Source: Escherichia coli
GTDB lineage: Bacteria; Pseudomonadota; Gammaproteobacteria; Enterobacterales; Enterobacteriaceae
Assembly: GCF_013315695.1 (NCBI RefSeq)
Contig: NZ_CP054353.1
DNA length: 64,000 nucleotides
Direction: 5' to 3' (one strand)
Positions 4,080-64,000 of the stretch are shown piece by piece. A model generated the notes under the pieces. That model made no database searches. It was not told the origin of the DNA and saw only the letters and a program-made list of their open reading frames with translations. The position numbers and the translations under genes are program-made. The first letter of the stretch is position 1; each line of letters opens with the position of its first letter.

Positions 4080-4172
4080 AGATCAAAGTAAATTTGAGAG
4101 ATATCTTCTTCTGTCTTGCAACAGAAGAACAGAAAATCGGGCTTTTGCGCCTGAATATTGCGGAGAAAAAGC

Positions 4173-6707
4173 ATGGCCGGGAATGACCGCGAGCCAATTG
4201 GACGCAAAGGGAAACCGACGCGTCCGGTCAAACAAAAGGTAAGCCGTCGTCGTTACGAAGATGACGATGATTACGACGATTATGATGACTATGAGGATGA
4301 AGAACCGATGCCGCGCAAAGGTAAGGGCAAAGGCAAAGGGCGTAAGCCTCGTGGCAAACGCGGCTGGCTATGGCTGCTGCTAAAACTGGCTATCGTTTTT
4401 GCCGTGCTGATCGCCATTTACGGCGTTTATCTCGATCAAAAAATTCGCAGCCGTATTGATGGCAAGGTCTGGCAATTGCCCGCGGCAGTTTATGGTCGAA
4501 TGGTCAACCTTGAGCCAGACATGACCATCAGCAAGAACGAGATGGTGAAGCTGCTGGAGGCGACCCAGTATCGCCAGGTGTCGAAAATGACCCGTCCTGG
4601 TGAGTTTACCGTACAGGCCAACAGCATTGAGATGATCCGCCGTCCGTTTGATTTCCCGGACAGCAAAGAAGGGCAGGTGCGCGCGCGTCTGACCTTTGAT
4701 GGCGATCATCTGGCGACGATCGTCAATATGGAGAACAACCGTCAGTTCGGTTTCTTCCGTCTTGATCCGCGCCTGATCACTATGATCTCTTCACCAAACG
4801 GTGAGCAGCGTCTGTTTGTGCCGCGCAGTGGTTTCCCGGATTTGCTGGTGGATACTTTGCTGGCGACAGAAGACCGTCATTTCTACGAGCATGATGGGAT
4901 CAGTCTCTACTCAATCGGACGTGCGGTGCTGGCAAACCTGACTGCCGGACGCACGGTGCAGGGGGCGAGTACGCTGACGCAACAGTTGGTTAAAAACCTG
5001 TTCCTCTCCAGCGAGCGTTCTTACTGGCGTAAAGCGAACGAAGCCTACATGGCGCTGATCATGGACGCGCGTTACAGCAAAGACCGTATTCTTGAGCTGT
5101 ATATGAACGAGGTGTATCTCGGTCAGAGCGGCGACAACGAAATCCGCGGCTTCCCGCTGGCGAGCTTGTATTACTTTGGTCGCCCGGTAGAAGAGCTAAG
5201 CCTCGATCAGCAGGCGCTGTTAGTCGGTATGGTGAAAGGGGCGTCCATCTACAACCCGTGGCGTAACCCGAAACTGGCGCTGGAGCGACGTAATCTGGTG
5301 CTGCGTCTGCTGCAACAGCAACAGATTATTGATCAAGAACTCTATGACATGTTGAGTGCACGTCCGCTGGGTGTTCAGCCGCGCGGTGGGGTGATCTCTC
5401 CTCAGCCAGCCTTTATGCAACTGGTGCGTCAGGAGCTGCAGGCGAAATTAGGCGATAAGGTAAAAGATCTCTCCGGCGTGAAGATCTTCACTACCTTTGA
5501 CTCGGTGGCCCAGGACGCGGCAGAAAAAGCCGCCGTGGAAGGCATTCCGGCACTGAAAAAACAGCGTAAGTTGAGCGATCTTGAAACTGCGATTGTGGTT
5601 GTTGACCGCTTTAGCGGTGAAGTTCGTGCGATGGTCGGTGGTTCTGAGCCGCAGTTTGCGGGCTACAACCGTGCGATGCAGGCGCGTCGTTCGATTGGTT
5701 CCCTTGCAAAACCAGCGACTTATCTGACTGCCTTAAGCCAGCCGAAAATCTATCGCCTGAACACGTGGATTGCCGATGCGCCCATTGCGCTGCGTCAGCC
5801 GAATGGCCAGGTCTGGTCACCGCAGAACGATGACCGTCGTTATAGCGAAAGTGGCAGAGTGATGCTGGTGGATGCGTTGACCCGTTCGATGAACGTGCCG
5901 ACGGTGAATCTGGGGATGGCGCTGGGGCTGCCTGCGGTTACGGAGACCTGGATTAAACTGGGCGTACCGAAAGATCAGCTGCATCCGGTTCCGGCGATGC
6001 TGCTGGGGGCGTTGAACTTAACGCCAATCGAAGTGGCGCAGGCATTCCAGACTATCGCCAGCGGCGGTAACCGTGCACCGCTTTCTGCGCTGCGTTCGGT
6101 AATTGCGGAAGATGGCAAAGTGCTGTATCAGAGCTTCCCGCAGGCGGAACGCGCGGTTCCGGCGCAGGCGGCGTATCTGACACTATGGACCATGCAGCAG
6201 GTGGTACAACGCGGTACGGGGCGTCAGCTTGGGGCGAAATACCCGAACCTGCATCTGGCAGGGAAAACAGGAACTACCAACAATAACGTAGATACCTGGT
6301 TTGCGGGCATTGACGGCAGCACGGTGACCATCACCTGGGTAGGCCGTGATAACAACCAACCGACCAAACTGTATGGAGCCAGCGGGGCAATGTCGATTTA
6401 TCAGCGTTATCTGGCTAACCAGACGCCAACACCGCTGAATCTTGTTCCGCCAGAAGATATTGCAGATATGGGCGTGGACTACGACGGCAACTTTGTTTGC
6501 AGCGGTGGCATGCGTGTCTTGCCGGTCTGGACCAGCGATCCGCAATCGCTGTGCCAGCAGAGTGAGATGCAGCAGCAGCCGTCAGGCAATCCGTTTGATC
6601 AGTCTTCTCAGCCGCAGCAACAGCCGCAACAGCAACCTGCTCAGCAAGAGCAGAAAGACAGCGACGGTGTAGCCGGTTGGATCAAGGATATGTTTGGTAG
6701 TAATTAA
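4173..6707 (+). CDS. mrcB: Penicillin-binding protein 1B (bifunctional glycosyltransferase/transpeptidase)
   Basis: Track ORF 4158-6707; start trimmed to [14 protein letters not shown]; acidic/basic cytoplasmic tail, TM helix, GT and TP domains. Confidence 0.95.
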
Positions 6708-6723
6708 CGTCTAAGCGTGACAT

Positions 6724-6748
6724 ACCGGATGGCGAGTAGCCATCCGGT
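6724..6748 (+). terminator. Stem-loop downstream of mrcB (ACCGGATGGC-gagta-GCCATCCGGT)
   Basis: 10-bp perfect inverted repeat 17 nt after mrcB stop; weak U-tract. Confidence 0.45.
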
Positions 6749-6870
6749 AAAATAACATCCCACCCAAAGTATTAACCCTTTCTTTTCATCTGGTTGTTTA
6801 TTAACCCTTCAGGAACGCTCAGATTGCCTACCGCTTGCGAACCCGCCAGCGTTTCGAATATTATCTTATA

Positions 6871-6889
6871 TTTATAATAATCATTCTCG
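6871..6889 (+). promoter_or_regulatory. Fur box overlapping fhuA promoter -10 region
   Basis: TTATAATAATCATTCTC resembles Fur consensus GATAATGATAATCATTATC; ~40 bp upstream of fhuA start; fhuA is a known Fur-regulated gene. Confidence 0.6.
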
Positions 6890-6926
6890 TTTACGTTATC
6901 ATTCACTTTACATCAGAGATATACCA

Positions 6927-9185
6927 ATGGCGCGTTCCAAAACTGCTCAGCCAAAACACTCACTGCGTAAAATCGCAGTTGTAGTAGCCACAGCGGTTAG
7001 CGGCATGTCTGTTTATGCACAGGCAGCGGTTGAACCGAAAGAAGACACTATCACCGTTACCGCTGCACCTGCGCCGCAAGAAAGCGCATGGGGGCCGGCT
7101 GCAACTATTGCGGCGCGACAGTCTGCTACCGGCACTAAAACCGATACGCCGATTCAAAAAGTGCCACAGTCTATTTCTGTTGTGACCGCCGAAGAGATGG
7201 CGCTGCATCAGCCGAAGTCGGTAAAAGAAGCTCTTAGCTACACTCCTGGCGTTGCCGTGGGAACTCGTGGCGCATCCAACACTTACGATTACCTGATCAT
7301 CCGCGGATTCGCCGCTGACGGCCAAAGCCAGAACAACTATCTGAATGGCCTGAAGATGCAGGGCAACTTCTATAACGATGCAGTTATCGATCCGTATATG
7401 CTGGAGCGCGCTGAAATCATGCGTGGTCCGGTATCCGTGCTGTACGGGAAAAGCAGCCCTGGCGGCCTGTTGAACATGGTCAGCAAGCGCCCGACTACAG
7501 AACCGCTGAAAGAAATTCAGTTTAAAGCCGGTACTGACAGCCTGTTCCAGACTGGTTTTGACTTCAGTGATGCGCTGGATGATGACGGCGTTTACTCTTA
7601 TCGTCTGACTGGTATTGCGCGTTCAGCCAATGCTCAGCAGAAGGGGGCAGAAGAGCAGCGTTATGCTATTGCTCCAGCGTTCACCTGGCGCCCGGATGAT
7701 AAAACCAATTTCACTTTCCTTTCTTACTTCCAGAACGAACCGGAAACCGGTTATTACGGCTGGTTGCCGAAAGAGGGAACCGTTGAGCCGCTGCCGAACG
7801 GTAAGCGTCTGCCGACAGACTTTAATGAAGGGGCGAAGAACAACACCTATTCTCGTAATGAGAAGATGGTGGGCTACAGCTTCGATCACGAATTTAACGA
7901 CACCTTTACTGTGCGTCAGAACCTGCGCTTTGCGCAAAATAAAGTCTCGCAAAAGAGCGTATATGGCTACGGCATGTGCTCGGATCCGCTGTATACCAAA
8001 GACGACGATGCACTCAAGGCGAGTCCATGTTTAAGTATCCCGCAGTCAGAATGGAATCATACACTGACTCGTCAGTACGTTATCGATAATGAGAAATTAG
8101 AAAACTTCTCTGTTGATACTCAGTTGCAAAGTAAATTCGCAACCGGCTCGGTTGAACACACTCTGCTGACCGGCGTTGACTTTATGCGTATGCGTAATGA
8201 TATTGACTCCTGGTTCGGTTACGCCGGTTCCGTTGCACCGTCTGATATCTATAATTTAGACCGTAGTGACTTTGATTTTGGTGCTCACCCGGATCCGTCT
8301 GGCCCATACCGCGTTTTGCTTAAACAGAAACAAACCGGTCTGTATGTTCAGGATCAGGCGCAGTGGGATAAGGTGCTGGTGACTCTGGGTGGTCGCTATG
8401 ACTGGGCGGAACAGTCATCTTTCAACCGTGATTACGGTAATAAATCCGATCGTGATGACAAACAGTTCACCTGGCGTGGTGGCGTAAACTACCTGTTCGA
8501 CAACGGGGTAACGCCTTACTTCAGCTACAGTGAGTCGTTTGAGCCAGCATCTTTGACAGATGCAAACGGTGATCTGTTTGCACCTTCGAAAGGCAAACAG
8601 TATGAAGTTGGTGTGAAATATGTGCCGGAAGATCGCCCAATTGTGCTGACGGGCGCACTGTATCAGCTTACCAAAACCAACAACCTGATGGCGGATCCGA
8701 ATAATCCCAATTTCTCGATTGAAGGCGGTGAGATTCGCGCTCGTGGTGTAGAACTGGAAGCAAAAGCGGCGCTGTCGGCGAGTGTTAACGTAGTAGGTTC
8801 TTATACTTACACCGATGCGGAATACACCACCGACACTACCTATAAAGGCAATACGCCTGCACAGGTGCCAAAACACATGGCTTCGCTGTGGGCTGACTAT
8901 ACCTTCTTTGACGGTCCGCTTTCAGGTCTGACGCTGGGCACCGGTGGTCGTTATACTGGCTCCAGCTATGGTGATCCGGCTAACTCCTTTAAAGTGGGAA
9001 GTTATACGGTCGTGGATGCGTTAGTGCGTTATGATCTGGCGCGAGTCGGCATGGCTGGCTCCAACGTGGCGCTGCATGTCAACAACCTGTTCGATCGTGA
9101 ATACGTCGCCAGCTGCTTTAACACCTATGGCTGCTTCTGGGGCGCAGAACGTCAGGTCGTTGCAACCGCAACCTTCCGTTTCTAA
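6927..9185 (+). CDS. fhuA: Ferrichrome outer-membrane transporter FhuA (TonB-dependent receptor); loop-variant allele
   Basis: 752-aa ORF with signal peptide MARSKTAQPKHSLRKIAVVVATAVSGMSVYA, TonB box region, C-terminal ATFRF; internal loop segments differ from K-12 (see findings). Confidence 0.95.
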   Translation: MARSKTAQPKHSLRKIAVVVATAVSGMSVYAQAAVEPKEDTITVTAAPAPQESAWGPAATIAARQSATGTKTDTPIQKVPQSISVVTAEEMALHQPKSVKEALSYTPGVAVGTRGASNTYDYLIIRGFAADGQSQNNYLNGLKMQGNFYNDAVIDPYMLERAEIMRGPVSVLYGKSSPGGLLNMVSKRPTTEPLKEIQFKAGTDSLFQTGFDFSDALDDDGVYSYRLTGIARSANAQQKGAEEQRYAIAPAFTWRPDDKTNFTFLSYFQNEPETGYYGWLPKEGTVEPLPNGKRLPTDFNEGAKNNTYSRNEKMVGYSFDHEFNDTFTVRQNLRFAQNKVSQKSVYGYGMCSDPLYTKDDDALKASPCLSIPQSEWNHTLTRQYVIDNEKLENFSVDTQLQSKFATGSVEHTLLTGVDFMRMRNDIDSWFGYAGSVAPSDIYNLDRSDFDFGAHPDPSGPYRVLLKQKQTGLYVQDQAQWDKVLVTLGGRYDWAEQSSFNRDYGNKSDRDDKQFTWRGGVNYLFDNGVTPYFSYSESFEPASLTDANGDLFAPSKGKQYEVGVKYVPEDRPIVLTGALYQLTKTNNLMADPNNPNFSIEGGEIRARGVELEAKAALSASVNVVGSYTYTDAEYTTDTTYKGNTPAQVPKHMASLWADYTFFDGPLSGLTLGTGGRYTGSSYGDPANSFKVGSYTVVDALVRYDLARVGMAGSNVALHVNNLFDREYVASCFNTYGCFWGAERQVVATATFRF

Positions 9186-9196
9186 TTTCTCTTTTG

Positions 9197-9216
9197 GGGC
9201 ACGGATTTCCGTGCCC
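9197..9216 (+). other. Intercistronic stem-loop between fhuA and fhuC (GGGCACGGA-tt-TCCGTGCCC)
   Basis: 9-bp perfect inverted repeat followed by GTTT, 12 nt after fhuA stop. Confidence 0.4.
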
Positions 9217-9235
9217 GTTTCACAAGTTGGCTGTT

Positions 9236-10033
9236 ATGCAGGAATACACGAATCATTCCGATACCACTTTTGCACTGCGTAATATCTCCTTTCGTGTGCC
9301 CGGGCGCACGCTTTTGCATCCGCTGTCGTTAACCTTTCCTGCCGGGAAAGTGACCGGTCTGATTGGTCACAACGGTTCTGGTAAATCCACTCTGCTCAAA
9401 ATGCTTGGTCGTCACCAGCCACCGTCGGAAGGGGAGATTCTCCTTGATGCCCAGCAGCTGGAAAGCTGGAGCAGCAAAGCGTTTGCCCGCAAAGTGGCTT
9501 ATTTGCCGCAGCAGCTTCCTCCGGCAGAAGGGATGACGGTGCGTGAACTGGTGGCGATTGGTCGTTACCCGTGGCATGGCGCACTAGGGCGCTTTGGTGC
9601 GGCAGATCGCGAAAAGGTCGAGGAAGCTATCTCGCTGGTTGGCTTAAAACCGCTGGCGCATCGGCTGGTCGATAGTCTCTCTGGCGGCGAACGTCAGCGG
9701 GCGTGGATCGCCATGCTGGTGGCGCAGGATAGCCGTTGTCTGTTGCTCGACGAACCGACCTCGGCGCTGGATATCGCCCACCAGGTTGATGTGCTGGCGC
9801 TGGTGCATCGTTTAAGTCAGGAGCGTGGCCTGACGGTCATTGCCGTGCTGCACGATATCAATATGGCTGCGCGTTACTGTGATTATCTGGTCGCCCTGCG
9901 CGGCGGTGAAATGATTGCTCAGGGAACGCCTGCGGAAATTATGCGCGGCGAAACCCTCGAAATGATTTATGGCATCCCGATGGGTATTTTGCCGCATCCG
10001 GCGGGTGCTGCACCTGTGAGTTTTGTTTATTGA
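9236..10033 (+). CDS. fhuC: Ferric hydroxamate ABC transporter ATP-binding protein FhuC
   Basis: Track ORF 9194-10033; start trimmed to MQEYTNHSDTTFALRN; Walker A GHNGSGKST, signature LSGGERQR. Confidence 0.95.
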   Translation: MQEYTNHSDTTFALRNISFRVPGRTLLHPLSLTFPAGKVTGLIGHNGSGKSTLLKMLGRHQPPSEGEILLDAQQLESWSSKAFARKVAYLPQQLPPAEGMTVRELVAIGRYPWHGALGRFGAADREKVEEAISLVGLKPLAHRLVDSLSGGERQRAWIAMLVAQDSRCLLLDEPTSALDIAHQVDVLALVHRLSQERGLTVIAVLHDINMAARYCDYLVALRGGEMIAQGTPAEIMRGETLEMIYGIPMGILPHPAGAAPVSFVY

Positions 10034-10923
10034 TGAGCGGCTTACCTCTTATTTCGCGCCGTCGACTGTTAACGGCGATGGCGCTTTCTCCGTTGTTATG
10101 GCAGATGAATACCGCCCACGCGGCGGCTATTGATCCCAATCGTATTGTGGCGCTGGAGTGGTTGCCGGTGGAATTACTGCTGGCGCTCGGCATCGTGCCT
10201 TACGGCGTGGCGGATACCATCAACTATCGCCTGTGGGTCAGCGAACCGCCATTGCCGGACTCAGTGATTGACGTTGGTTTGCGTACAGAACCTAACCTTG
10301 AACTGCTGACCGAAATGAAACCATCGTTTATGGTCTGGTCGGCAGGATATGGCCCTTCACCAGAAATGCTGGGACGTATTGCGCCGGGTCGCGGATTTAA
10401 CTTCAGTGACGGCAAACAGCCGCTGGCGATGGCGCGTAAATCGCTGACGGAAATGGCAGATTTACTTAACCTGCAAAGCGCAGCAGAAACGCATTTAGCG
10501 CACTATGAAGACTTTATCCGCAGCATGAAACCCCGCTTTGTGAAGCGTGGTGCACGCCCGTTATTGCTGACGACGCTTATCGATCCGCGCCATATGTTGG
10601 TCTTCGGTCCAAACAGCTTGTTCCAGGAAATTCTCGATGAGTACGGCATCCCAAATGCCTGGCAAGGGGAAACCAACTTTTGGGGCAGTACCGCCGTCAG
10701 TATCGATCGTCTGGCAGCGTATAAAGACGTTGATGTGCTCTGTTTTGATCACGACAACAGCAAAGACATGGATGCGCTAATGGCAACCCCGCTGTGGCAG
10801 GCCATGCCGTTTGTCCGCGCCGGACGCTTTCAGCGCGTTCCGGCGGTCTGGTTCTATGGTGCGACGCTTTCTGCAATGCACTTTGTGCGTATTCTGGATA
10901 ACGCCATCGGAGGTAAAGCGTGA
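10033..10923 (+). CDS. fhuD: Ferric hydroxamate periplasmic binding protein FhuD
   Basis: MSGLPLISRRRLLTAMALSPLLWQMNTAHAAAIDP (Tat-like signal); ATG overlaps fhuC stop. Confidence 0.94.
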   Translation: MSGLPLISRRRLLTAMALSPLLWQMNTAHAAAIDPNRIVALEWLPVELLLALGIVPYGVADTINYRLWVSEPPLPDSVIDVGLRTEPNLELLTEMKPSFMVWSAGYGPSPEMLGRIAPGRGFNFSDGKQPLAMARKSLTEMADLLNLQSAAETHLAHYEDFIRSMKPRFVKRGARPLLLTTLIDPRHMLVFGPNSLFQEILDEYGIPNAWQGETNFWGSTAVSIDRLAAYKDVDVLCFDHDNSKDMDALMATPLWQAMPFVRAGRFQRVPAVWFYGATLSAMHFVRILDNAIGGKA

Positions 10924-12902
10924 GTAAACGAATTGCGCTTTTTCCGGTGCTATTGCTGGTGCTGCTGGTGGTTGCTGCTGCGGCGTTGACCTGGATGAAC
11001 TTCTCGCAGGCGCTGCCGCGCAGCCAGTGGGCGCAGGCCGCCTGGTCGCCGGATATTGACGTCATCGAGCAGATGATTTTTCACTACAGCTTGTTGCCGC
11101 GTCTGGCGATTTCGCTGCTGGTGGGCGCGGGCCTGGGGCTGGTGGGCGTGCTGTTTCAGCAAGTGCTGCGTAACCCGCTGGCGGAACCGACGACGTTGGG
11201 CGTTGCAACAGGCGCGCAACTGGGGATTACCGTCACCACGCTCTGGGCGATCCCAGGTGCTATGGCGAGCCAGTTTGCTGCGCTGGCAGGGGCTTGTGTT
11301 GTTGGCTTAATCGTCTTTGGCGTCGCGTGGGGGAAACGGCTTTCGCCGGTAACGCTGATCCTCGCGGGGCTGGTAGTGAGCCTTTATTGCGGCGCAATCA
11401 ATCAGTTACTGGTTATCTTCCATCATGACCAACTGCAAAGCATGTTCCTGTGGAGCACCGGAACGCTGACGCAAACCGACTGGGGCGGCGTTGAGCGTTT
11501 ATGGCCGCAGCTGCTGGGCGGCGTGATGCTGACGTTATTGCTACTTCGCCCGTTAACTCTGATGGGGCTTGATGATGGCGTGGCGCGCAATCTCGGGCTG
11601 GCCTTGTCGCTCGCGCGTCTGGCGGCGTTGTCGCTGGCGATTGTCATCAGTGCGCTGCTGGTGAACGCGGTGGGGATTATCGGCTTTATCGGGTTGTTCG
11701 CGCCACTGCTGGCGAAAATGCTGGGGGCGCGGCGTTTGTTGCCACGGTTGATGCTGGCATCGCTGATTGGTGCGTTAATTCTGTGGCTTTCTGATCAAAT
11801 CATCCTCTGGCTGACTCGCGTGTGGATGGAAGTTTCCACCGGTTCGGTGACGGCGTTGATCGGTGCGCCGCTGTTACTGTGGCTGCTGCCGCGTTTACGT
11901 AGCATTAGCGCGCCGGATATGAAGGTCAACGATCGTGTCGCGGCTGAACGCCAACACGTGCTGGCGTTTGCCCTCGCGGGCGGCGTGCTGCTGTTGATGG
12001 CTGTGGTGGTGGCGCTGTCGTTTGGTCGTGATGCGCACGGCTGGACGTGGGCGAGCGGGGCGTTGCTCGAGGATTTGATGCCCTGGCGCTGGCCGCGAAT
12101 TATGGCGGCGCTGTTTGCGGGCGTCATGCTGGCGGTGGCGGGCTGTATTATTCAGCAGCTGACCGGAAACCCGATGGCAAGCCCGGAAGTGCTGGGGATT
12201 AGCTCCGGCGCGGCGTTTGGCGTGGTGTTAATGCTGTTTCTGGTGCCGGGTAATGCCTTTGGCTGGCTGTTACCCGCAGGCAGTCTCGGGGCGGCGGTGA
12301 CGCTGTTGATCATTATGATCGCCGCCGGACGCGGTGGATTTTCCCCACACCGCATGTTACTGGCGGGGATGGCGTTAAGTACCGCGTTCACCATGCTTTT
12401 GATGATGTTGCAGGCAAGTGGTGACCCGCGAATGGCGCAAGTTCTGACCTGGATTTCCGGTTCGACCTACAACGCGACCGAGGCGCAGGTCTGGCGTACT
12501 GGAATTGTGATGGTGATTTTGCTGGCGATTACCCCGCTGTGCCGCCGCTGGCTGACCATTTTACCGCTGGGAGGTGATACCGCACGAGCCGTGGGGATGG
12601 CGCTGACGCCGACGCGAATTGCGCTGCTGCTGTTAGCGGCTTGCCTGACAGCGACTGCGACAATGACCATTGGACCGTTGAGTTTTGTTGGTTTAATGGC
12701 ACCGCATATTGCGCGGATGATGGGCTTTCGACGGACGATGCCACACATCGTAATTTCGGCGCTGGTGGGTGGTTTACTGTTGGTGTTCGCTGACTGGTGT
12801 GGGCGGATGGTGCTGTTTCCATTCCAGATCCCGGCGGGGCTGCTGTCGACCTTTATCGGCGCGCCATATTTTATCTATTTGTTGAGAAAGCAGAGCCGTT
12901 AA
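10920..12902 (+). CDS. fhuB: Ferric hydroxamate ABC transporter permease FhuB (duplicated permease domain)
   Basis: 660-aa polytopic membrane ORF MSKRIALFPVLLLVLL...; overlaps fhuD stop. Confidence 0.94.
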   Translation: MSKRIALFPVLLLVLLVVAAAALTWMNFSQALPRSQWAQAAWSPDIDVIEQMIFHYSLLPRLAISLLVGAGLGLVGVLFQQVLRNPLAEPTTLGVATGAQLGITVTTLWAIPGAMASQFAALAGACVVGLIVFGVAWGKRLSPVTLILAGLVVSLYCGAINQLLVIFHHDQLQSMFLWSTGTLTQTDWGGVERLWPQLLGGVMLTLLLLRPLTLMGLDDGVARNLGLALSLARLAALSLAIVISALLVNAVGIIGFIGLFAPLLAKMLGARRLLPRLMLASLIGALILWLSDQIILWLTRVWMEVSTGSVTALIGAPLLLWLLPRLRSISAPDMKVNDRVAAERQHVLAFALAGGVLLLMAVVVALSFGRDAHGWTWASGALLEDLMPWRWPRIMAALFAGVMLAVAGCIIQQLTGNPMASPEVLGISSGAAFGVVLMLFLVPGNAFGWLLPAGSLGAAVTLLIIMIAAGRGGFSPHRMLLAGMALSTAFTMLLMMLQASGDPRMAQVLTWISGSTYNATEAQVWRTGIVMVILLAITPLCRRWLTILPLGGDTARAVGMALTPTRIALLLLAACLTATATMTIGPLSFVGLMAPHIARMMGFRRTMPHIVISALVGGLLLVFADWCGRMVLFPFQIPAGLLSTFIGAPYFIYLLRKQSR

Positions 12903-12908
12903 TAGGAT

Positions 12909-12929
12909 GCCTCGCCCGGTGGGCGAGGC
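12909..12929. terminator. Hairpin between convergent fhuB and hemL (GCCTCGCCC-ggt-GGGCGAGGC)
   Basis: 9-bp perfect inverted repeat in the 34-bp convergent spacer; no clean U-tract. Confidence 0.45.
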
Positions 12930-12936
12930 AAAATCA

Positions 12937-20173: not shown

Positions 20174-20218
20174 AGAACACAGCAATTTTGCGTTATCTGT
20201 TAATCGAGACTGAAATAC

Positions 20219-21643
20219 ATGAAAAAAACCACATTAGCACTGAGTGCACTGGCTCTGAGTTTAGGTTTGGCGTTATCTCCGCTCTCTGCAACGGCGGCTG
20301 AGACTTCTTCAGCAACGACAGCCCAGCAGATGCCAAGCCTTGCACCGATGCTCGAAAAGGTGATGCCTTCAGTGGTCAGCATTAACGTAGAAGGTAGCAC
20401 AACCGTTAATACGCCGCGTATGCCGCGTAATTTCCAGCAGTTCTTCGGTGATGATTCTCCGTTCTGCCAGGAAGGTTCTCCGTTCCAGAGTTCTCCGTTC
20501 TGCCAGGGTGGCCAGGGCGGTAATGGTGGCGGCCAGCAACAGAAATTCATGGCGCTGGGTTCCGGCGTCATCATTGATGCCGATAAAGGCTATGTCGTCA
20601 CCAACAACCACGTTGTTGATAACGCGACGGTGATTAAAGTCCAACTGAGCGATGGTCGTAAGTTCGACGCGAAGATGGTTGGCAAAGATCCGCGCTCTGA
20701 TATCGCGCTGATCCAGATCCAGAACCCGAAAAACCTGACCGCAATTAAGATGGCGGATTCTGATGCGCTGCGCGTGGGTGATTACACCGTAGCAATTGGT
20801 AACCCGTTCGGCCTGGGCGAGACAGTAACTTCCGGGATTGTCTCTGCGCTGGGACGTAGCGGCCTGAACGCTGAAAACTACGAAAACTTCATCCAGACCG
20901 ATGCAGCGATCAACCGGGGTAACTCAGGTGGTGCGTTGGTTAACCTGAACGGCGAACTGATTGGTATCAACACCGCGATTCTCGCACCGGACGGCGGAAA
21001 CATCGGTATCGGTTTTGCTATCCCGAGCAACATGGTGAAAAACCTGACCTCGCAGATGGTGGAATACGGCCAGGTGAAACGTGGTGAGTTGGGTATTATG
21101 GGCACTGAGCTGAACTCCGATCTGGCGAAAGCGATGAAAGTTGACGCCCAGCGCGGTGCTTTCGTAAGCCAGGTTCTGCCGAATTCTTCCGCCGCGAAAG
21201 CGGGTATTAAAGCGGGTGATGTGATCACCTCACTGAACGGTAAGCCAATCAGCAGCTTTGCCGCACTGCGTGCTCAGGTGGGCACTATGCCGGTAGGTAG
21301 CAAACTGACCCTGGGCTTACTGCGCGACGGGAAGCAGGTTAACGTGAACCTGGAACTTCAGCAGAGCAGCCAGAATCAGGTTGATTCCAGCACCATCTTC
21401 AACGGCATTGAAGGCGCTGAGATGAGCAACAAAGGCAAAGATCAGGGCGTGGTGGTGAACAACGTGAAAACGGGCACTCCGGCTGCGCAGATCGGCCTGA
21501 AGAAAGGTGATGTGATTATTGGCGCGAACCAGCAGGCAGTGAAAAACATCGCTGAACTGCGTAAAGTTCTCGACAGCAAACCGTCTGTGCTGGCACTGAA
21601 CATTCAGCGCGGCGACAGCACCATCTACCTGTTAATGCAGTAA
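20219..21643 (+). CDS. degP: Periplasmic serine endoprotease/chaperone DegP (HtrA), two PDZ domains
   Basis: 474-aa ORF with signal peptide, catalytic GNSGGAL, Q-rich LA loop. Confidence 0.96.
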   Translation: MKKTTLALSALALSLGLALSPLSATAAETSSATTAQQMPSLAPMLEKVMPSVVSINVEGSTTVNTPRMPRNFQQFFGDDSPFCQEGSPFQSSPFCQGGQGGNGGGQQQKFMALGSGVIIDADKGYVVTNNHVVDNATVIKVQLSDGRKFDAKMVGKDPRSDIALIQIQNPKNLTAIKMADSDALRVGDYTVAIGNPFGLGETVTSGIVSALGRSGLNAENYENFIQTDAAINRGNSGGALVNLNGELIGINTAILAPDGGNIGIGFAIPSNMVKNLTSQMVEYGQVKRGELGIMGTELNSDLAKAMKVDAQRGAFVSQVLPNSSAAKAGIKAGDVITSLNGKPISSFAALRAQVGTMPVGSKLTLGLLRDGKQVNVNLELQQSSQNQVDSSTIFNGIEGAEMSNKGKDQGVVVNNVKTGTPAAQIGLKKGDVIIGANQQAVKNIAELRKVLDSKPSVLALNIQRGDSTIYLLMQ

Positions 21644-23395: not shown

Positions 23396-23709
23396 AGCGT
23401 TACCTCAAAATGAGTCAGTAAATTGTGCTTATTTTAGCATTTGGCCTGGCCCGCCCGGCTCGACTGTGATCGCAGAAAGCCTTTTTCTTCCAGACTTCTA
23501 TCATGGCGTAAAAATCAAAAAATTACCTGCTTTATTGTGGCGATATTCCATGGGATGGATTAGCACATTTATCTTCGTTTTGCGAATTACATGACAGTCC
23601 GAAACAAGATGAAAAAGTATTTAAAAAAGGGGGGAGGAAGAATGAGCAGGACGAATTATTCTGAACCAGAAAGCAATCGGGCAGCGTCGTGCTGCCCGTG
23701 TACATACTT

Positions 23710-46942: not shown

Positions 46943-47902
46943 ATGAGTCTGAATTTCCTTGATTTTGAACAGCCGATTGCAGAGCTGGAAGCGAAAATCG
47001 ATTCTCTGACTGCGGTTAGCCGTCAGGATGAGAAACTGGATATTAACATCGATGAAGAAGTGCATCGTCTGCGTGAAAAAAGCGTAGAACTGACGCGTAA
47101 AATCTTCGCCGATCTCGGTGCATGGCAGATTGCGCAACTGGCACGCCATCCACAGCGTCCTTATACCCTGGATTACGTTCGCCTGGCATTTGATGAATTT
47201 GACGAACTGGCTGGCGACCGCGCGTATGCAGACGATAAAGCTATCGTCGGTGGCATCGCCCGTCTCGATGGTCGTCCGGTGATGATCATTGGTCATCAAA
47301 AAGGTCGTGAAACCAAAGAAAAAATTCGCCGTAACTTTGGTATGCCAGCGCCAGAAGGTTACCGCAAAGCACTGCGTCTGATGCAAATGGCTGAACGCTT
47401 TAAGATGCCAATCATCACCTTTATCGACACCCCGGGGGCTTATCCGGGCGTGGGCGCAGAAGAACGCGGTCAGTCTGAAGCCATTGCACGCAACCTGCGT
47501 GAAATGTCTCGCCTTAGCGTACCGACTATTTGTACCGTTATCGGTGAAGGTGGTTCTGGCGGCGCGCTGGCGATTGGCGTGGGCGATAAAGTGAATATGC
47601 TGCAATACAGCACCTATTCCGTTATCTCGCCGGAAGGTTGTGCGTCCATTCTGTGGAAGAGCGCCGACAAAGCGCCGCTGGCGGCTGAAGCGATGGGTAT
47701 CATCGCTCCGCGTCTGAAAGAGCTGAAACTGATCGACTCCATCATCCCGGAACCGCTGGGCGGCGCTCATCGTAACCCGGAAGCGATGGCGGCATCGTTG
47801 AAAGCGCAACTGCTGGCGGATCTGGCCGATCTCGACGTGTTAAGCACTGAAGATTTAAAAAATCGTCGTTATCAGCGCCTGATGAGCTACGGTTACGCGT
47901 AA
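46943..47902 (+). CDS. accA: Acetyl-CoA carboxylase carboxyltransferase alpha subunit
   Basis: 319-aa [28 protein letters not shown]... ending LMSYGYA. Confidence 0.97.
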
Positions 47903-47927
47903 TTCGCAAAAGTTCTGAAAAAGGGTC

Positions 47928-47938
47928 ACTTCGGTGGT
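47928..47938. repeat. Left copy of 11-bp target-site duplication CACTTCGGTGG flanking IS4
   Basis: Identical 11-mer directly abuts both ends of the IS4 element. Confidence 0.8.
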
Positions 47939-47988
47939 AATGCCGATCAGTTAAGGATCAGTTGACCGATCCAGTGGCTGTGTAAGAA

Positions 47989-48022
47989 TCCGGAAACGCT
48001 CACTTGTTTCCGGATTTTTTTA
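47989..48022 (+). terminator. IS4-internal hairpin + T-tract immediately upstream of the transposase ATG
   Basis: ATCCGGAAAC-gctcactt-GTTTCCGGAT followed by TTTTTTT, ending at the insG start codon. Confidence 0.55.
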
Positions 48023-49350
48023 TGCACATTGGACAGGCTCTTGATCTGGTATCCCGTTACGATTCTCTGCGTAACCCACTGACTTCTCTGGGGGATTACC
48101 TCGACCCCGAACTCATCTCTCGTTGCCTTGCCGAATCAGGTACTGTAACGCTACGCAAGCGCCGTCTTCCCCTCGAAATGATGGTCTGGTGTATTGTTGG
48201 CATGGCGCTTGAGCGTAAAGAACCTCTTCACCAGATTGTGAATCGCCTGGACATCATGCTGCCGGGCAATCGCCCCTTCGTTGCCCCCAGTGCCGTTATT
48301 CAGGCCCGCCAGCGCCTGGGAAGTGAGGCTGTCCGCCGCGTGTTCACGAAAACAGCGCAGCTCTGGCATAACGCCACGCCGCATCCGCACTGGTGCGGCC
48401 TGACCCTGCTGGCCATCGATGGTGTGTTCTGGCGCACACCGGATACACCAGAGAACGATGCAGCCTTCCCCCGCCAGACACATGCCGGGAACCCGGCGCT
48501 CTACCCGCAGGTCAAAATGGTCTGCCAGATGGAACTGACCAGCCATCTGCTGACGGCTGCAGCCTTCGGCACGATGAAGAACAGCGAAAATGAGCTTGCT
48601 GAGCAACTTATAGAACAAACCGGCGATAACACTCTGACGTTAATGGATAAAGGTTATTACTCACTGGGACTGTTAAATGCCTGGAGCCTGGCGGGAGAAC
48701 ACCGCCACTGGATGATACCTCTCAGAAAGGGAGCGCAATATGAAGAGATCAGAAAACTGGGTAAAGGCGATCATCTGGTGAAGCTGAAAACCAGCCCGCA
48801 GGCACGAAAAAAGTGGCCGGGACTGGGAAATGAAGTGACAGCCCGCCTGCTGACCGTGACGCGCAAAGGAAAAGTCTGCCATCTGCTGACGTCGATGACG
48901 GACGCCATGCGCTTCCCCGGAGGAGAAATGGCGGATCTGTACAGTCATCGCTGGGAAATCGAACTGGGATACAGGGAGATAAAACAGACGATGCAACTGA
49001 GCAGGCTGACGCTGAGAAGTAAAAAACCGGAGCTTGTGGAGCAAGAGCTGTGGGGTGTCTTACTGGCTTATAATCTGGTGAGATATCAGATGATTAAAAT
49101 GGCGGAACATCTGAAAGGTTACTGGCCGAATCAACTGAGTTTCTCAGAATCATGCGGAATGGTGATGAGAATGCTGATGACATTGCAGGGCGCTTCACCG
49201 GGACGTATACCGGAGCTGATGCGCGATCTTGCAAGTATGGGACAACTTGTGAAATTACCGACAAGAAGGGAAAGGGCCTTCCCGAGAGTGGTAAAGGAGA
49301 GGCCCTGGAAATACCCCACAGCCCCGAAAAAGAGCCAGTCAGTTGCTTAA
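48022..49350 (+). CDS. insG: IS4 transposase (DDE family)
   Basis: Track ORF 48004-49350; start trimmed to [27 protein letters not shown]; 442 aa; matches my recollection of IS4 InsG. Confidence 0.92.
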
Positions 49351-49364
49351 CTGACTGGCATTAC

Positions 49365-49375
49365 ACTTCGGTGGC
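49365..49375. repeat. Right copy of 11-bp target-site duplication CACTTCGGTGG flanking IS4
   Basis: Identical to 47928-47938; followed by CCCTTTTTT, the 3' half and U-tract of the split accA terminator. Confidence 0.8.
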
Positions 49376-49437
49376 CCTTTTTTATCGCCACGGTTTGAGC
49401 AGGCTATGATTAAGGAAGGATTTTCCAGGAGGAACAC

Positions 49438-51579
49438 ATGAACATCATTGCCATTATGGGACCGCATGGCGTCTTTTATAAAGATGAGCCCATCAAAGAA
49501 CTGGAGTCGGCGCTGGTGGCGCAAGGCTTTCAGATTATCTGGCCACAAAACAGCGTTGATTTGCTGAAATTTATCGAACATAACCCTCGAATTTGCGGCG
49601 TGATTTTTGACTGGGATGAGTACAGTCTCGATTTATGTAGCGATATCAATCAGCTTAATGAATATCTCCCGCTATATGCCTTCATCAACACCCACTCGAC
49701 GATGGATGTCAGCGTGCAGGATATGCGGATGGCGCTCTGGTTTTTTGAATATGCGCTGGGGCAGGCGGAAGATATCGCCATTCGTATGCGTCAGTACACC
49801 AACGAATATCTTGATAACATTACACCGCCGTTCACGAAAGCCTTGTTTACCTACGTCAAAGAGCGGAAGTACACCTTTTGTACGCCGGGTCATATGGGCG
49901 GCACCGCATATCAAAAAAGCCCGGTTGGCTGTCTGTTTTATGATTTTTTCGGCGGGAATACTCTTAAGGCTGATGTCTCTATTTCGGTTACCGAGCTTGG
50001 TTCGTTGCTCGACCACACCGGGCCACACCTGGAAGCGGAAGAGTACATCGCGCGGACTTTTGGCGCGGAACAGAGTTATATCGTTACCAACGGAACATCG
50101 ACGTCGAACAAAATTGTGGGTATGTACGCCGCGCCATCCGGCAGTACGCTGTTGATCGACCGCAATTGTCATAAATCGCTGGCGCATCTGTTAATGATGA
50201 ACGATGTAGTGCCAGTCTGGCTGAAACCGACGCGTAATGCGTTGGGGATTCTTGGTGGGATCCCGCGCCGTGAATTTACTCGCGACAGCATCGAAGAGAA
50301 AGTCGCTGCTACCACGCAAGCACAATGGCCGGTTCATGCGGTGATTACCAACTCCACCTATGATGGCTTGCTCTACAACACCGACTGGATCAAACAGACG
50401 CTGGATGTCCCGTCGATTCACTTCGATTCTGCCTGGGTGCCGTACACCCATTTTCATCCGATCTACCAGGGTAAAAGTGGTATGAGCGGCGAGCGTGTTG
50501 CGGGAAAAGTGATCTTCGAAACGCAATCGACCCACAAAATGCTGGCGGCGTTATCGCAGGCTTCGCTGATCCACATTAAAGGCGAGTATGACGAAGAGGC
50601 GTTTAACGAAGCCTTTATGATGCATACCACCACCTCGCCCAGTTATCCCATTGTTGCTTCGGTTGAGACGGCGGCGGCGATGCTGCGTGGTAATCCGGGC
50701 AAACGGCTGATTAACCGTTCGGTGGAGCGGGCGCTGCATTTTCGCAAAGAGGTCCAGCGGCTGCGGGAAGAGTCTGACGGTTGGTTTTTCGATATCTGGC
50801 AACCGCCGCAGGTGGATGAAGCCGAATGCTGGCCCGTTGCGCCTGGCGAACAGTGGCACGGCTTTAACGATGCGGATGCCGATCATATGTTTCTCGATCC
50901 GGTTAAAGTCACTATTTTGACACCGGGGATGGACGAGCAGGGCAATATGAGCGAGGAGGGGATCCCGGCGGCGCTGGTGGCAAAATTCCTCGACGAACGT
51001 GGGATCGTAGTAGAGAAAACCGGCCCTTATAACCTGCTGTTTCTCTTTAGTATTGGCATCGATAAAACCAAAGCAATGGGATTATTGCGTGGGTTGACGG
51101 AATTTAAGCGCTCTTACGATCTCAACCTGCGGATCAAAAATATGCTGCCCGATCTCTATGCAGAAGATCCCGATTTCTACCGCAGTATGCGTATTCAGGA
51201 TCTGGCGCAAGGGATCCATAAGCTGATTCGTAAACACGATCTTCCCGGTTTGATGTTGCGGGCATTTGATACCTTGCCGGAGATGATCATGACGCCACAT
51301 CAGGCATGGCAGAGACAGATTAAAGGTGAAGTAGAAACCATTGCGCTGGAACAACTGGTCGGTAGAGTATCGGCAAATATGATCCTGCCTTATCCACCCG
51401 GCGTACCGCTGTTGATGCCTGGAGAAATGCTGACCGAAGAGAGCCGCACGGTACTCGATTTTCTACTGATGCTTTGTTCCGTAGGGCAACATTACCCCGG
51501 TTTTGAAACGGATATTCACGGCGCGAAACAGGACGAAGACGGCATTTACCGCGTACGAGTCCTAAAAATGGCGGGATAA
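49438..51579 (+). CDS. ldcC: Constitutive lysine decarboxylase
   Basis: 713-aa ORF MNIIAIMGPHGVFYKDEPIKELESAL...; preceded by AGGAGG. Confidence 0.96.
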   Translation: MNIIAIMGPHGVFYKDEPIKELESALVAQGFQIIWPQNSVDLLKFIEHNPRICGVIFDWDEYSLDLCSDINQLNEYLPLYAFINTHSTMDVSVQDMRMALWFFEYALGQAEDIAIRMRQYTNEYLDNITPPFTKALFTYVKERKYTFCTPGHMGGTAYQKSPVGCLFYDFFGGNTLKADVSISVTELGSLLDHTGPHLEAEEYIARTFGAEQSYIVTNGTSTSNKIVGMYAAPSGSTLLIDRNCHKSLAHLLMMNDVVPVWLKPTRNALGILGGIPRREFTRDSIEEKVAATTQAQWPVHAVITNSTYDGLLYNTDWIKQTLDVPSIHFDSAWVPYTHFHPIYQGKSGMSGERVAGKVIFETQSTHKMLAALSQASLIHIKGEYDEEAFNEAFMMHTTTSPSYPIVASVETAAAMLRGNPGKRLINRSVERALHFRKEVQRLREESDGWFFDIWQPPQVDEAECWPVAPGEQWHGFNDADADHMFLDPVKVTILTPGMDEQGNMSEEGIPAALVAKFLDERGIVVEKTGPYNLLFLFSIGIDKTKAMGLLRGLTEFKRSYDLNLRIKNMLPDLYAEDPDFYRSMRIQDLAQGIHKLIRKHDLPGLMLRAFDTLPEMIMTPHQAWQRQIKGEVETIALEQLVGRVSANMILPYPPGVPLLMPGEMLTEESRTVLDFLLMLCSVGQHYPGFETDIHGAKQDEDGIYRVRVLKMAG

Positions 51580-55027: not shown

Positions 55028-55738
55028 ATGGTGAAAAAAGCGATAGTGACAGCGATGGCTGTAATCAGCCTCTTTACTCTGATGGGATGTAATAATCGGG
55101 CCGAAGTCGACACGCTTTCTCCGGCGCAGGCTGCCGAACTGAAACCGATGCCGCAAAGTTGGCGCGGCGTGCTGCCGTGTGCCGATTGCGAAGGGATCGA
55201 AACCTCTTTGTTCCTCGAAAAAGATGGAACCTGGGTGATGAATGAACGCTATCTTGGTGCGCGTGAAGAGCCTTCCTCTTTCGCTTCCTACGGTACATGG
55301 GCGCGAACCGCTGACAAGCTGGTATTAACCGACAGCAAAGGTGAAAAGTCATATTATCGGGCGAAAGGAGATGCGCTGGAGATGCTCGATCGTGAAGGTA
55401 ATCCGATTGAATCGCAGTTCAACTATACGCTGGAACCGGCACAATCCAGTTTACCCATGACGCCGATGACCCTGCGGGGCATGTATTTTTATATGGCTGA
55501 TGCGGCGACCTTCACTGATTGCGCGACCGGAAAACGTTTCATGGTAGCGAATAACGCAGAGCTGGAGCGTGGCTACCTGGCTGCGCGCGGTCATAGTGAA
55601 AAACCGATGTTACTGTCATTAGAAGGGCACTTTACGCTTGAGGCTAATCCGGATACCGGTGCGCCAACCAAAGTATTAGCGCCCGATACGGCAGGTAAAT
55701 TTTACCCGAACCAGGAATGCAGTAGTTTGGAGCAGTAA
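55028..55738 (+). CDS. nlpE: Outer-membrane lipoprotein NlpE (Cpx-activating)
   Basis: 236-aa ORF MVKKAIVTAMAVISLFTLMGCNNRAEV (lipobox LMGC), CxxC motif. Confidence 0.95.
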   Translation: MVKKAIVTAMAVISLFTLMGCNNRAEVDTLSPAQAAELKPMPQSWRGVLPCADCEGIETSLFLEKDGTWVMNERYLGAREEPSSFASYGTWARTADKLVLTDSKGEKSYYRAKGDALEMLDREGNPIESQFNYTLEPAQSSLPMTPMTLRGMYFYMADAATFTDCATGKRFMVANNAELERGYLAARGHSEKPMLLSLEGHFTLEANPDTGAPTKVLAPDTAGKFYPNQECSSLEQ

Positions 55739-55744
55739 TTGAAC

Positions 55745-55766
55745 GCCGGAGCATTCTCCGGCTTTT
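55745..55766. terminator. Hairpin between convergent nlpE and yaeF (GCCGGAG-cattc-TCCGGC + TTTT)
   Basis: Inverted repeat with T4 on the plus strand in the 29-bp convergent spacer. Confidence 0.6.

Positions 55767-63357: not shown

Positions 63358-64000
<643 letters not shown>

Follow-up and report, generated by a model that had tools for sequence, protein, structure and literature searches.

A complete IS4 copy in the terminator-like hairpin downstream of accA in an IS4-rich Escherichia coli clone

Which element separates accA from ldcC in the 64-kb stretch of Escherichia coli DNA studied here (all 64,000 nucleotides of it are called the window below), how did it reach this place, and what would it change for its two neighbors? 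In the clone that carries it, the accA-ldcC spacer measures 1.5 kb against 98 bp, and the accA 3' UTR and ldcC upstream region of K-12 are not transferable to it. The reading that we favor, with a probability of about 0.9, is an ordinary cut-and-paste insertion of IS4 into an intrinsic-terminator-like hairpin downstream of accA, during which a staggered cut would have duplicated 11 bp at the hairpin top. The coordinates of the features involved are collected in Table 1.

Table 1. Features of the accA-ldcC region, with positions numbered along the window
Feature	Position	Strand	Basis and remarks
accA, 319 aa, intact	46943..47902	+	ORF list; stop TAA 47900-47902
Left terminator remnant: A-run, 5' arm GGGTCAC, loop TTCG, GTGG of the 3' arm	47918..47937	+	
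IRL, TAATGCCGATCAGTTAAG	47938..47955	+	Exact string search
Promoter-like site TTGACC-16-AAGAAT, TG before the -10	47962..47989	+	Candidate transposase promoter (putative role)
Internal terminator-like hairpin: 11-bp stem AATCCGGAAAC/GTTTCCGGATT, 8-nt loop, T7	47987..48021	+	RNA fold
IS4 transposase (InsG-type), 442 aa	48022..49350	+	ORF list, translation; single ORF without frameshift, ATG at 48022, stop at 49350
11-bp hairpin overlapping IRR, then TCTTTTT on the minus strand	49334..49359	-	Consensus scan, folds
IRR, CTTAACTGACTGGCATTA	49346..49363	+	Exact string search
Right duplication copy (49364-49374), then CCC and T6 tract of the former terminator	49364..49383	+	
ldcC, 713 aa, intact	49438..51579	+	ORF list; starts 74 bp past the IS4 end

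The element and its empty site

An exact string search of the window placed a complete IS4 of 1426 bp at positions 47938-49363 on the + strand. Its 18-bp terminal inverted repeats are imperfect (TAATGCCGATCAGTTAAG against TAATGCCAGTCAGTTAAG, with 16/18 positions matching), both ends open with TAATG, the end signature -AATR of the IS4 subgroup, and its length falls inside the size range of that subgroup, 1400-1650 bp (PMC2266710, Table 1 therein for size). Besides the ATG given in Table 1, RefSeq annotators sometimes choose an upstream TTG at 48004, which yields a transposase of 448 aa. The protein carries at residue 307 the YREK signature, Y(2)R(3)E(6)K, defined for the family in PMC2266710, and scores 304.5 bits against the NCBIfam model of IS4 family transposases (NF033592; cutoff 115). 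Compared with the MG1655 feature annotated 'insertion sequence:IS4', the element is 99.7% identical (1422/1426 bases, 4 substitutions, no indels). This K-12 copy (insG, b4278; MG1655 4502090-4503515) likewise measures 1426 bp and has 18-bp ends and a single 442-aa transposase, but it occupies another chromosomal site, and two of the four base differences change amino acids of InsG, at residues 304 and 326. Full-length copies 100% identical to the one in the window, annotated 'IS4-like element IS4 family transposase', are present in many complete E. coli genomes; IS4 is carried by 2686 of the 5426 complete genomes of the species that were searched, with a median of 1 and a maximum of 32 copies. 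An Rfam scan returned no RNA family match inside or adjoining the element. At the level of sequence, this is an ordinary and complete IS4 and no new kind of element. A sequence-only reading that preceded this analysis had described a complete IS4 of 1426 bp, with 16/18 inverted repeats and a 442-aa transposase, and the string search, the ORF list and the matches to MG1655, to other E. coli copies and to the NCBIfam model bear it out. The features that it listed are real, although every position was one base too high, and IS4 does lie upstream of ldcC, but by 74 bp to the ATG and not by 73 bp.

The window contains exactly two copies of the 11-bp repeat CACTTCGGTGG (47927-47937 and 49364-49374), each abutting an IS4 end. 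The repeat is perfect, its extension to 12 bp is impossible, and its length falls in the 10-13 bp range expected for IS4. Removal of IS4 and of one repeat copy restores the site AAAAAGGGTCACTTCGGTGGCCCTTTTTT. In the alignment with MG1655, the window is collinear with positions 160456-224413, with no large insertion other than IS4; the block to its left extends to K-12 position 209615 and the one to its right begins at 209605, so that the two share exactly the 11 duplicated bases, and MG1655 reads at that place GAAAAAGGGTCACTTCGGTGGCCCTTTTTTAT, identical to the reconstructed site. The alignment confirms both that the direct repeat is a target duplication and that K-12, which has the empty site with an identical hairpin, lacks an IS here, as had been proposed in the sequence-only reading. 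The reconstructed empty site of 400 bp was found at a coverage of at least 80% in 5414/5426 complete E. coli genomes, whereas a 64-bp query centered on the hairpin was uninterrupted (at least 80% covered) in 5420 of them, split in 4 and absent in 2; the accA-ldcC spacer of related genomes does contain the terminator sequence reconstructed earlier. With the 400-bp query, 10 genomes fell below 80% coverage, namely the 4 with a split hairpin and 6 others that differ elsewhere in the 400 bp. All four split hairpins are due to IS4, and nothing else splits the hairpin in this collection.

The restored hairpin reads GGGTCAC-TTCG-GTGGCCC followed by T6, and its stem starts 20 nt past the accA stop. 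As RNA, it folds with -23.5 kcal/mol (z -4.7), a stability reached by 0/200 shuffled sequences, and its A-run pairs with the U-run; the hairpin followed by a U-tract that had been drawn from the sequence is thus recovered by folding. Even a strain with only 96.8% identity over the 400-bp region has the same hairpin, and the stem is invariant, which leaves no covariation to assess. In matching loci, the accA protein has the same accession (WP_000055746.1). The interpretation of the restored hairpin as a predicted intrinsic terminator is well supported by its form, position and conservation; a literature search found no paper with measured transcript 3' ends at the U-tract of the accA hairpin. 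The last 11 bases of the left remnant (47927-47937) are the left copy of the duplication. The insertion did split the hairpin, as previously claimed, but it did not leave one clean arm per side: because the loop and portions of the two arms were duplicated, a residual mini-hairpin is found on each side.

Two insertions into one hairpin and the target preference of IS4

Among the 5426 genomes, the same junction in the same orientation occurs only in AF3 (NZ_OZ547117.1; UK, blood culture) and MSB1_4I (NZ_LR898874.1; Australia, rectal swab), each with about 18 IS4 copies. Comparison over 36.2 kb gave 2 mismatches between the window and MSB1_4I, and 5 mismatches plus 1 gap between the window and AF3; so few differences place the window in the clone of these two strains and, by this measure, the three sequences are one clone. 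The insertion had been regarded as strain-specific. It is indeed rare, but not unique, since two RefSeq genomes share it, in which it is already annotated as IS4 transposase, and it represents a rare strain marker of one IS4-rich E. coli clone. The literature search returned no relevant paper linking IS4 with accA or ldcC and none discussing the insertion.

Two other strains, NN5 and ZH177 (both from China), also carry IS4 in the accA hairpin. Their insertion is like that of the window in the hairpin concerned, in the type of element and in the duplication of overlapping bases, but it is unlike it in its opposite orientation, in a duplication of 12 bp (TCACTTCGGTGG) instead of 11 bp, in an IS4 variant that is 98.6% identical, and in the host lineage, with flanks 97.9-98.6% identical to those of the window. 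Over 6168 bp, a single difference separates NN5 from ZH177. Judging from these comparisons, the IS4 copies in the accA hairpin are the outcome of two independent events.

Two other explanations of the locus bear on the element itself and on its flanks. The two residues (304 and 326) at which the K-12 InsG protein differs could be taken as a sign that the window holds a decayed, immobile relic of IS4, but the transposase ORF is full-length and has its YREK motif, both ends are intact, 100% identical copies exist in many genomes, and the perfect target duplication points to a young insertion, all of which makes a relic very improbable. The identical copies and the roughly 18 copies per carrier genome, against a median of 1, suggest recent IS4 activity, and they are indirect support that the copy in the window may be able to transpose. 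Practically no credit is due to the idea that the flanking repeat pre-existed or is an assembly artefact, instead of being the footprint of transposition: a UK and an Australian genome, assembled to completion independently of each other, have the same junction, and the overlap of the K-12 alignment blocks by exactly 11 bp, the uninterrupted hairpin region in 5420 genomes and the 12-bp duplication left by the second event at the same site led us to reject it.

Under the preferred reading, an ordinary IS4 insertion, the target preference of the element would explain that the same hairpin was hit twice independently: IS4 would favor symmetric targets made of an A-run, a GC-rich palindrome and a T-run, which intrinsic terminators would offer by nature. 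A strong site selectivity of IS4, with insertions at galT and in the pheST attenuator, was reportedly noted by Klaer and Starlinger and by Mayaux et al. in 1984, the latter being said to have proposed AAA-N20-TTT as the target consensus; one characterized insertion, the one in the pheST attenuator, reportedly lay in a terminator or attenuator structure. The galT and pheST insertions are laboratory-selected mutations, whereas the one in the window is natural and lies downstream of accA. By direct reading, AAA-N20-TTT is present at the window site as well as at the site of the resident K-12 copy (AAACACCAGAACCAAGATGCCTATTT); the K-12 site has A and T flanks and no hairpin, in contrast with the terminator-like hairpin of the window. 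This motif occurs 29 times in the window, which implies that it is not by itself the whole determinant, and its frequency, together with the non-hairpin site of K-12, indicates that the preference must also involve a symmetric GC-rich core.

To quantify the preference, the exact 30-base right end of IS4 was scanned in one genome per bacterial species, which yielded 67 loci spread over many Enterobacterales (loci L003-L069, with no E. coli locus among them and most copies at contig ends). IS4 copies of other Enterobacterales supplied 60 distinct right flanks with a length of 40 nt or more, and these were compared with 20,000 control positions drawn at random from the same loci. A T-run, taken as 5 or more T in 6 bases beginning at positions 11-22, was present in 44/60 flanks, against 6% of the controls, and a small hairpin top at the start of the flank in 43/60, against 23%; the two together characterized 31/60 flanks, against 1.6% of the controls. 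Position 1 is C in 47/60 flanks, and positions 18-20 are T in 46-52 of the 60. Three complete copies with both flanks lie in an A-run/hairpin/T-run arrangement or close to it (for example, AAAAAAAACACCCGCTTCAGGCGGGTGTTTTTT in L057), and the right flank in the window, CACTTCGGTGGCCCTTTTTT, matches the pattern of T-run and hairpin top. As judged from these flanks, IS4 targets terminator-like palindromes, a preference in agreement with which De Palmenaer et al. can be cited. The site selectivity invoked in the sequence-only reading gains support from the opposite-orientation event on the same hairpin as well as from the 60 flanks in other species. The biology of the insertion is known, and the recurrent hit and the flank statistics confirm a known preference: the survey (44/60 flanks with a T-run) is a quantitative confirmation of an old observation and not a discovery, and the accA insertion provides a clean natural example of the preference of IS4 for terminator-like palindromes. 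What the transposase recognizes is probably a symmetric sequence or DNA shape, incidentally present in terminators, and not terminators as such. In the same IS4 family, IS231A has as its target a GC-rich symmetric core, GGG-N5-CCC, between A- and T-tracts. This preference is similar, but it belongs to another element with a Bacillus host, and the spacing within the core differs; at accA, the sequence is AAAAA-GGG-N12-CCC-TTTTTT. A passage of PMC2266710 cites Hallet et al. 1994 for the target preference of IS231A.

Outside E. coli, some Enterobacterales have the IS4 right end at a high copy number, with 16 loci in Kosakonia oryziphila, 8 in Budvicia, 6 in Silvania, 6 in Buttiauxella sp. A111 and 5 in Dryocola. 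IS4 ends also turned up in a contig assigned to an Oscillospiraceae MAG (L054) and in one assigned to Chryseobacterium sp. 18061 (L060); the flank of the latter is identical to that in Citrobacter sp. 18056 (L058), from the same study, which suggests contamination or mis-binning for L054 and L060 rather than true hosts. Three Pectobacterium species (L039, L042 and L063) have nearly the same IS4 right flank, TTCAGAAAATGATTTTCTTGCTAGAAAA…, which is A/T-rich and off the pattern of hairpin and T-run; it may reflect an old orthologous insertion or a different type of target.

Transcription signals of IS4 and expected effects on accA and ldcC

IS4 carries terminator-like structures of its own near both ends. 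That of the left end, about 50-85 nt inside the element, finishes with a T7 tract directly before the transposase ATG and folds, together with its U7, with -22.8 kcal/mol (z -7.1). The consensus scanner, applied to 47600-49600, called no + strand terminator-like site in IS4, the left-end hairpin included, a miss that we attribute to the maximal stem absorbing part of the T-run. The hairpin overlapping IRR is an inward-facing terminator-like site at the right end, devoid of a U-tract on the + strand. The candidate transposase promoter is the only + strand promoter-like site called by the consensus scan in 47600-49600; it matches at 9/12 positions, and 2 such sites were found against 1.3 expected in shuffled sequence. 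A transcript from 47996 does not form the left hairpin (-7.3 kcal/mol, z +1.7).

These signals allow the fate of accA transcripts to be predicted. In the left copy, the 5' arm, the loop and GTGG are retained while CCC and the U-tract are lost, and the native accA terminator is therefore gone. The transcripts would then meet the IS4 hairpin and U7 (47987-48021) and end about 75 nt later with a stable 3' hairpin; because IS4 carries this hairpin and U7, the effect of the insertion on accA 3' end formation is predicted to be probably small. With IS4 oriented as in NN5, a terminator-like structure would lie in the path of accA transcripts after no more than about 40 nt. With both accA and ldcC intact and a replacement terminator supplied by IS4, a small overall impact is to be expected. 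The left internal terminator may also shield the transposase gene from outside read-through, while the IS4 transcript itself, if it starts near 47996, inside the 5' arm of the hairpin, would escape termination, so that the expression of the transposase would not be blocked.

Terminator-like sequences upstream of transposase genes, inside or just outside ISs, have been described as a general pattern in a 2025 preprint (10.1101/2025.07.22.666184). We tentatively propose, at somewhat less than even odds, that IS4 might be a 'terminator-swapping' element that homes to terminator-like palindromes, which are safe intergenic sites, and brings inward terminators at both ends, thereby restoring termination of the upstream gene in either orientation and insulating its transposase from outside transcription. 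If this were true, the accA hairpin would be a natural hotspot to which IS4 returns, with two hits among 5426 genomes, one per orientation. Each piece of this proposal (the IS4 target consensus, the polarity of IS4, and terminators inside ISs) is known from the literature; their combination into a terminator-swapping principle, with its quantification across Enterobacterales, may be unstated for IS4.

Concerning ldcC, the net effect of the insertion is predicted to be probably modest. On the + strand, no hairpin with a U-tract follows the transposase stop and folding of the residual 3' arm gives no terminator; weak transcription of the transposase may run into ldcC, and accA read-through into ldcC would now be blocked by the internal hairpin of IS4. 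A real regulatory effect on ldcC, either upwards via read-out from the transposase promoter or downwards via the loss of upstream transcription or promoter elements, and for which the insertion was perhaps retained, would be consistent with these two features of the + strand (the consensus scan also called no terminator-like site on it from the transposase stop to ldcC), with the block to accA read-through, with the position of the IS4 end 74 bp before the ldcC ATG, and with the reported RpoS dependence of ldcC in stationary phase (PMC6257575, citing Kikuchi 1998). We nevertheless find such an effect unlikely, since the insertion is found in only two clones out of 5426 genomes and in opposite orientations, a distribution more easily accounted for by neutral insertion into a favored target than by selection for a single regulatory result. 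Moreover, the consensus scan called no outward promoter-like site at the right end and no promoter between the IS4 end and ldcC, and a -10-like CTATGAT at 49404-49410, recognized by eye only, lies downstream of the insertion, so that the core ldcC promoter may be untouched.

A short complementarity links the two sides of the right junction: CCTGGAAA (49304-49311), near the right end of IS4, is complementary over 8 nt to TTTCCAGG (49422-49429), which lies just upstream of the ldcC Shine-Dalgarno sequence and overlaps it. The two segments pair in the minimum-energy fold of a hypothetical read-through RNA from IS4 to ldcC, probably by chance.

Other differences between the window and MG1655

Elsewhere in the window, the alignment with MG1655 revealed several smaller differences. 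At 23546-23674, the window lacks yaeI (MG1655 184257-185069): 129 bp of unrelated sequence take the place of about 842 bp found in K-12 between yaeH and dapD. Five intergenic segments of MG1655, of 110-196 bp, are absent at window positions 4081-4090 (hrpB-mrcB), 12903-12936 (fhuB-hemL), 29192-29203 (rpsB-tsf), 31094-31098 (pyrH-frr) and 55738-55764 (nlpE-yaeF); they are probably presence/absence polymorphisms of REP/BIME sequences. Identity to MG1655, about 98-99.5% elsewhere in the window, is only 94.5% in the mrcB-fhuACDB block (4090-12903), where the alignment has 30 gap openings; this suggests a recombined or fast-evolving segment around fhuA, a phage and colicin receptor gene. The Rfam scan found, as expected, the HtrA 5' UTR thermometer upstream of degP (20179-20224) and the t44 RNA upstream of rpsB (28347-28433), and a partial 16S rRNA starts at 63358.
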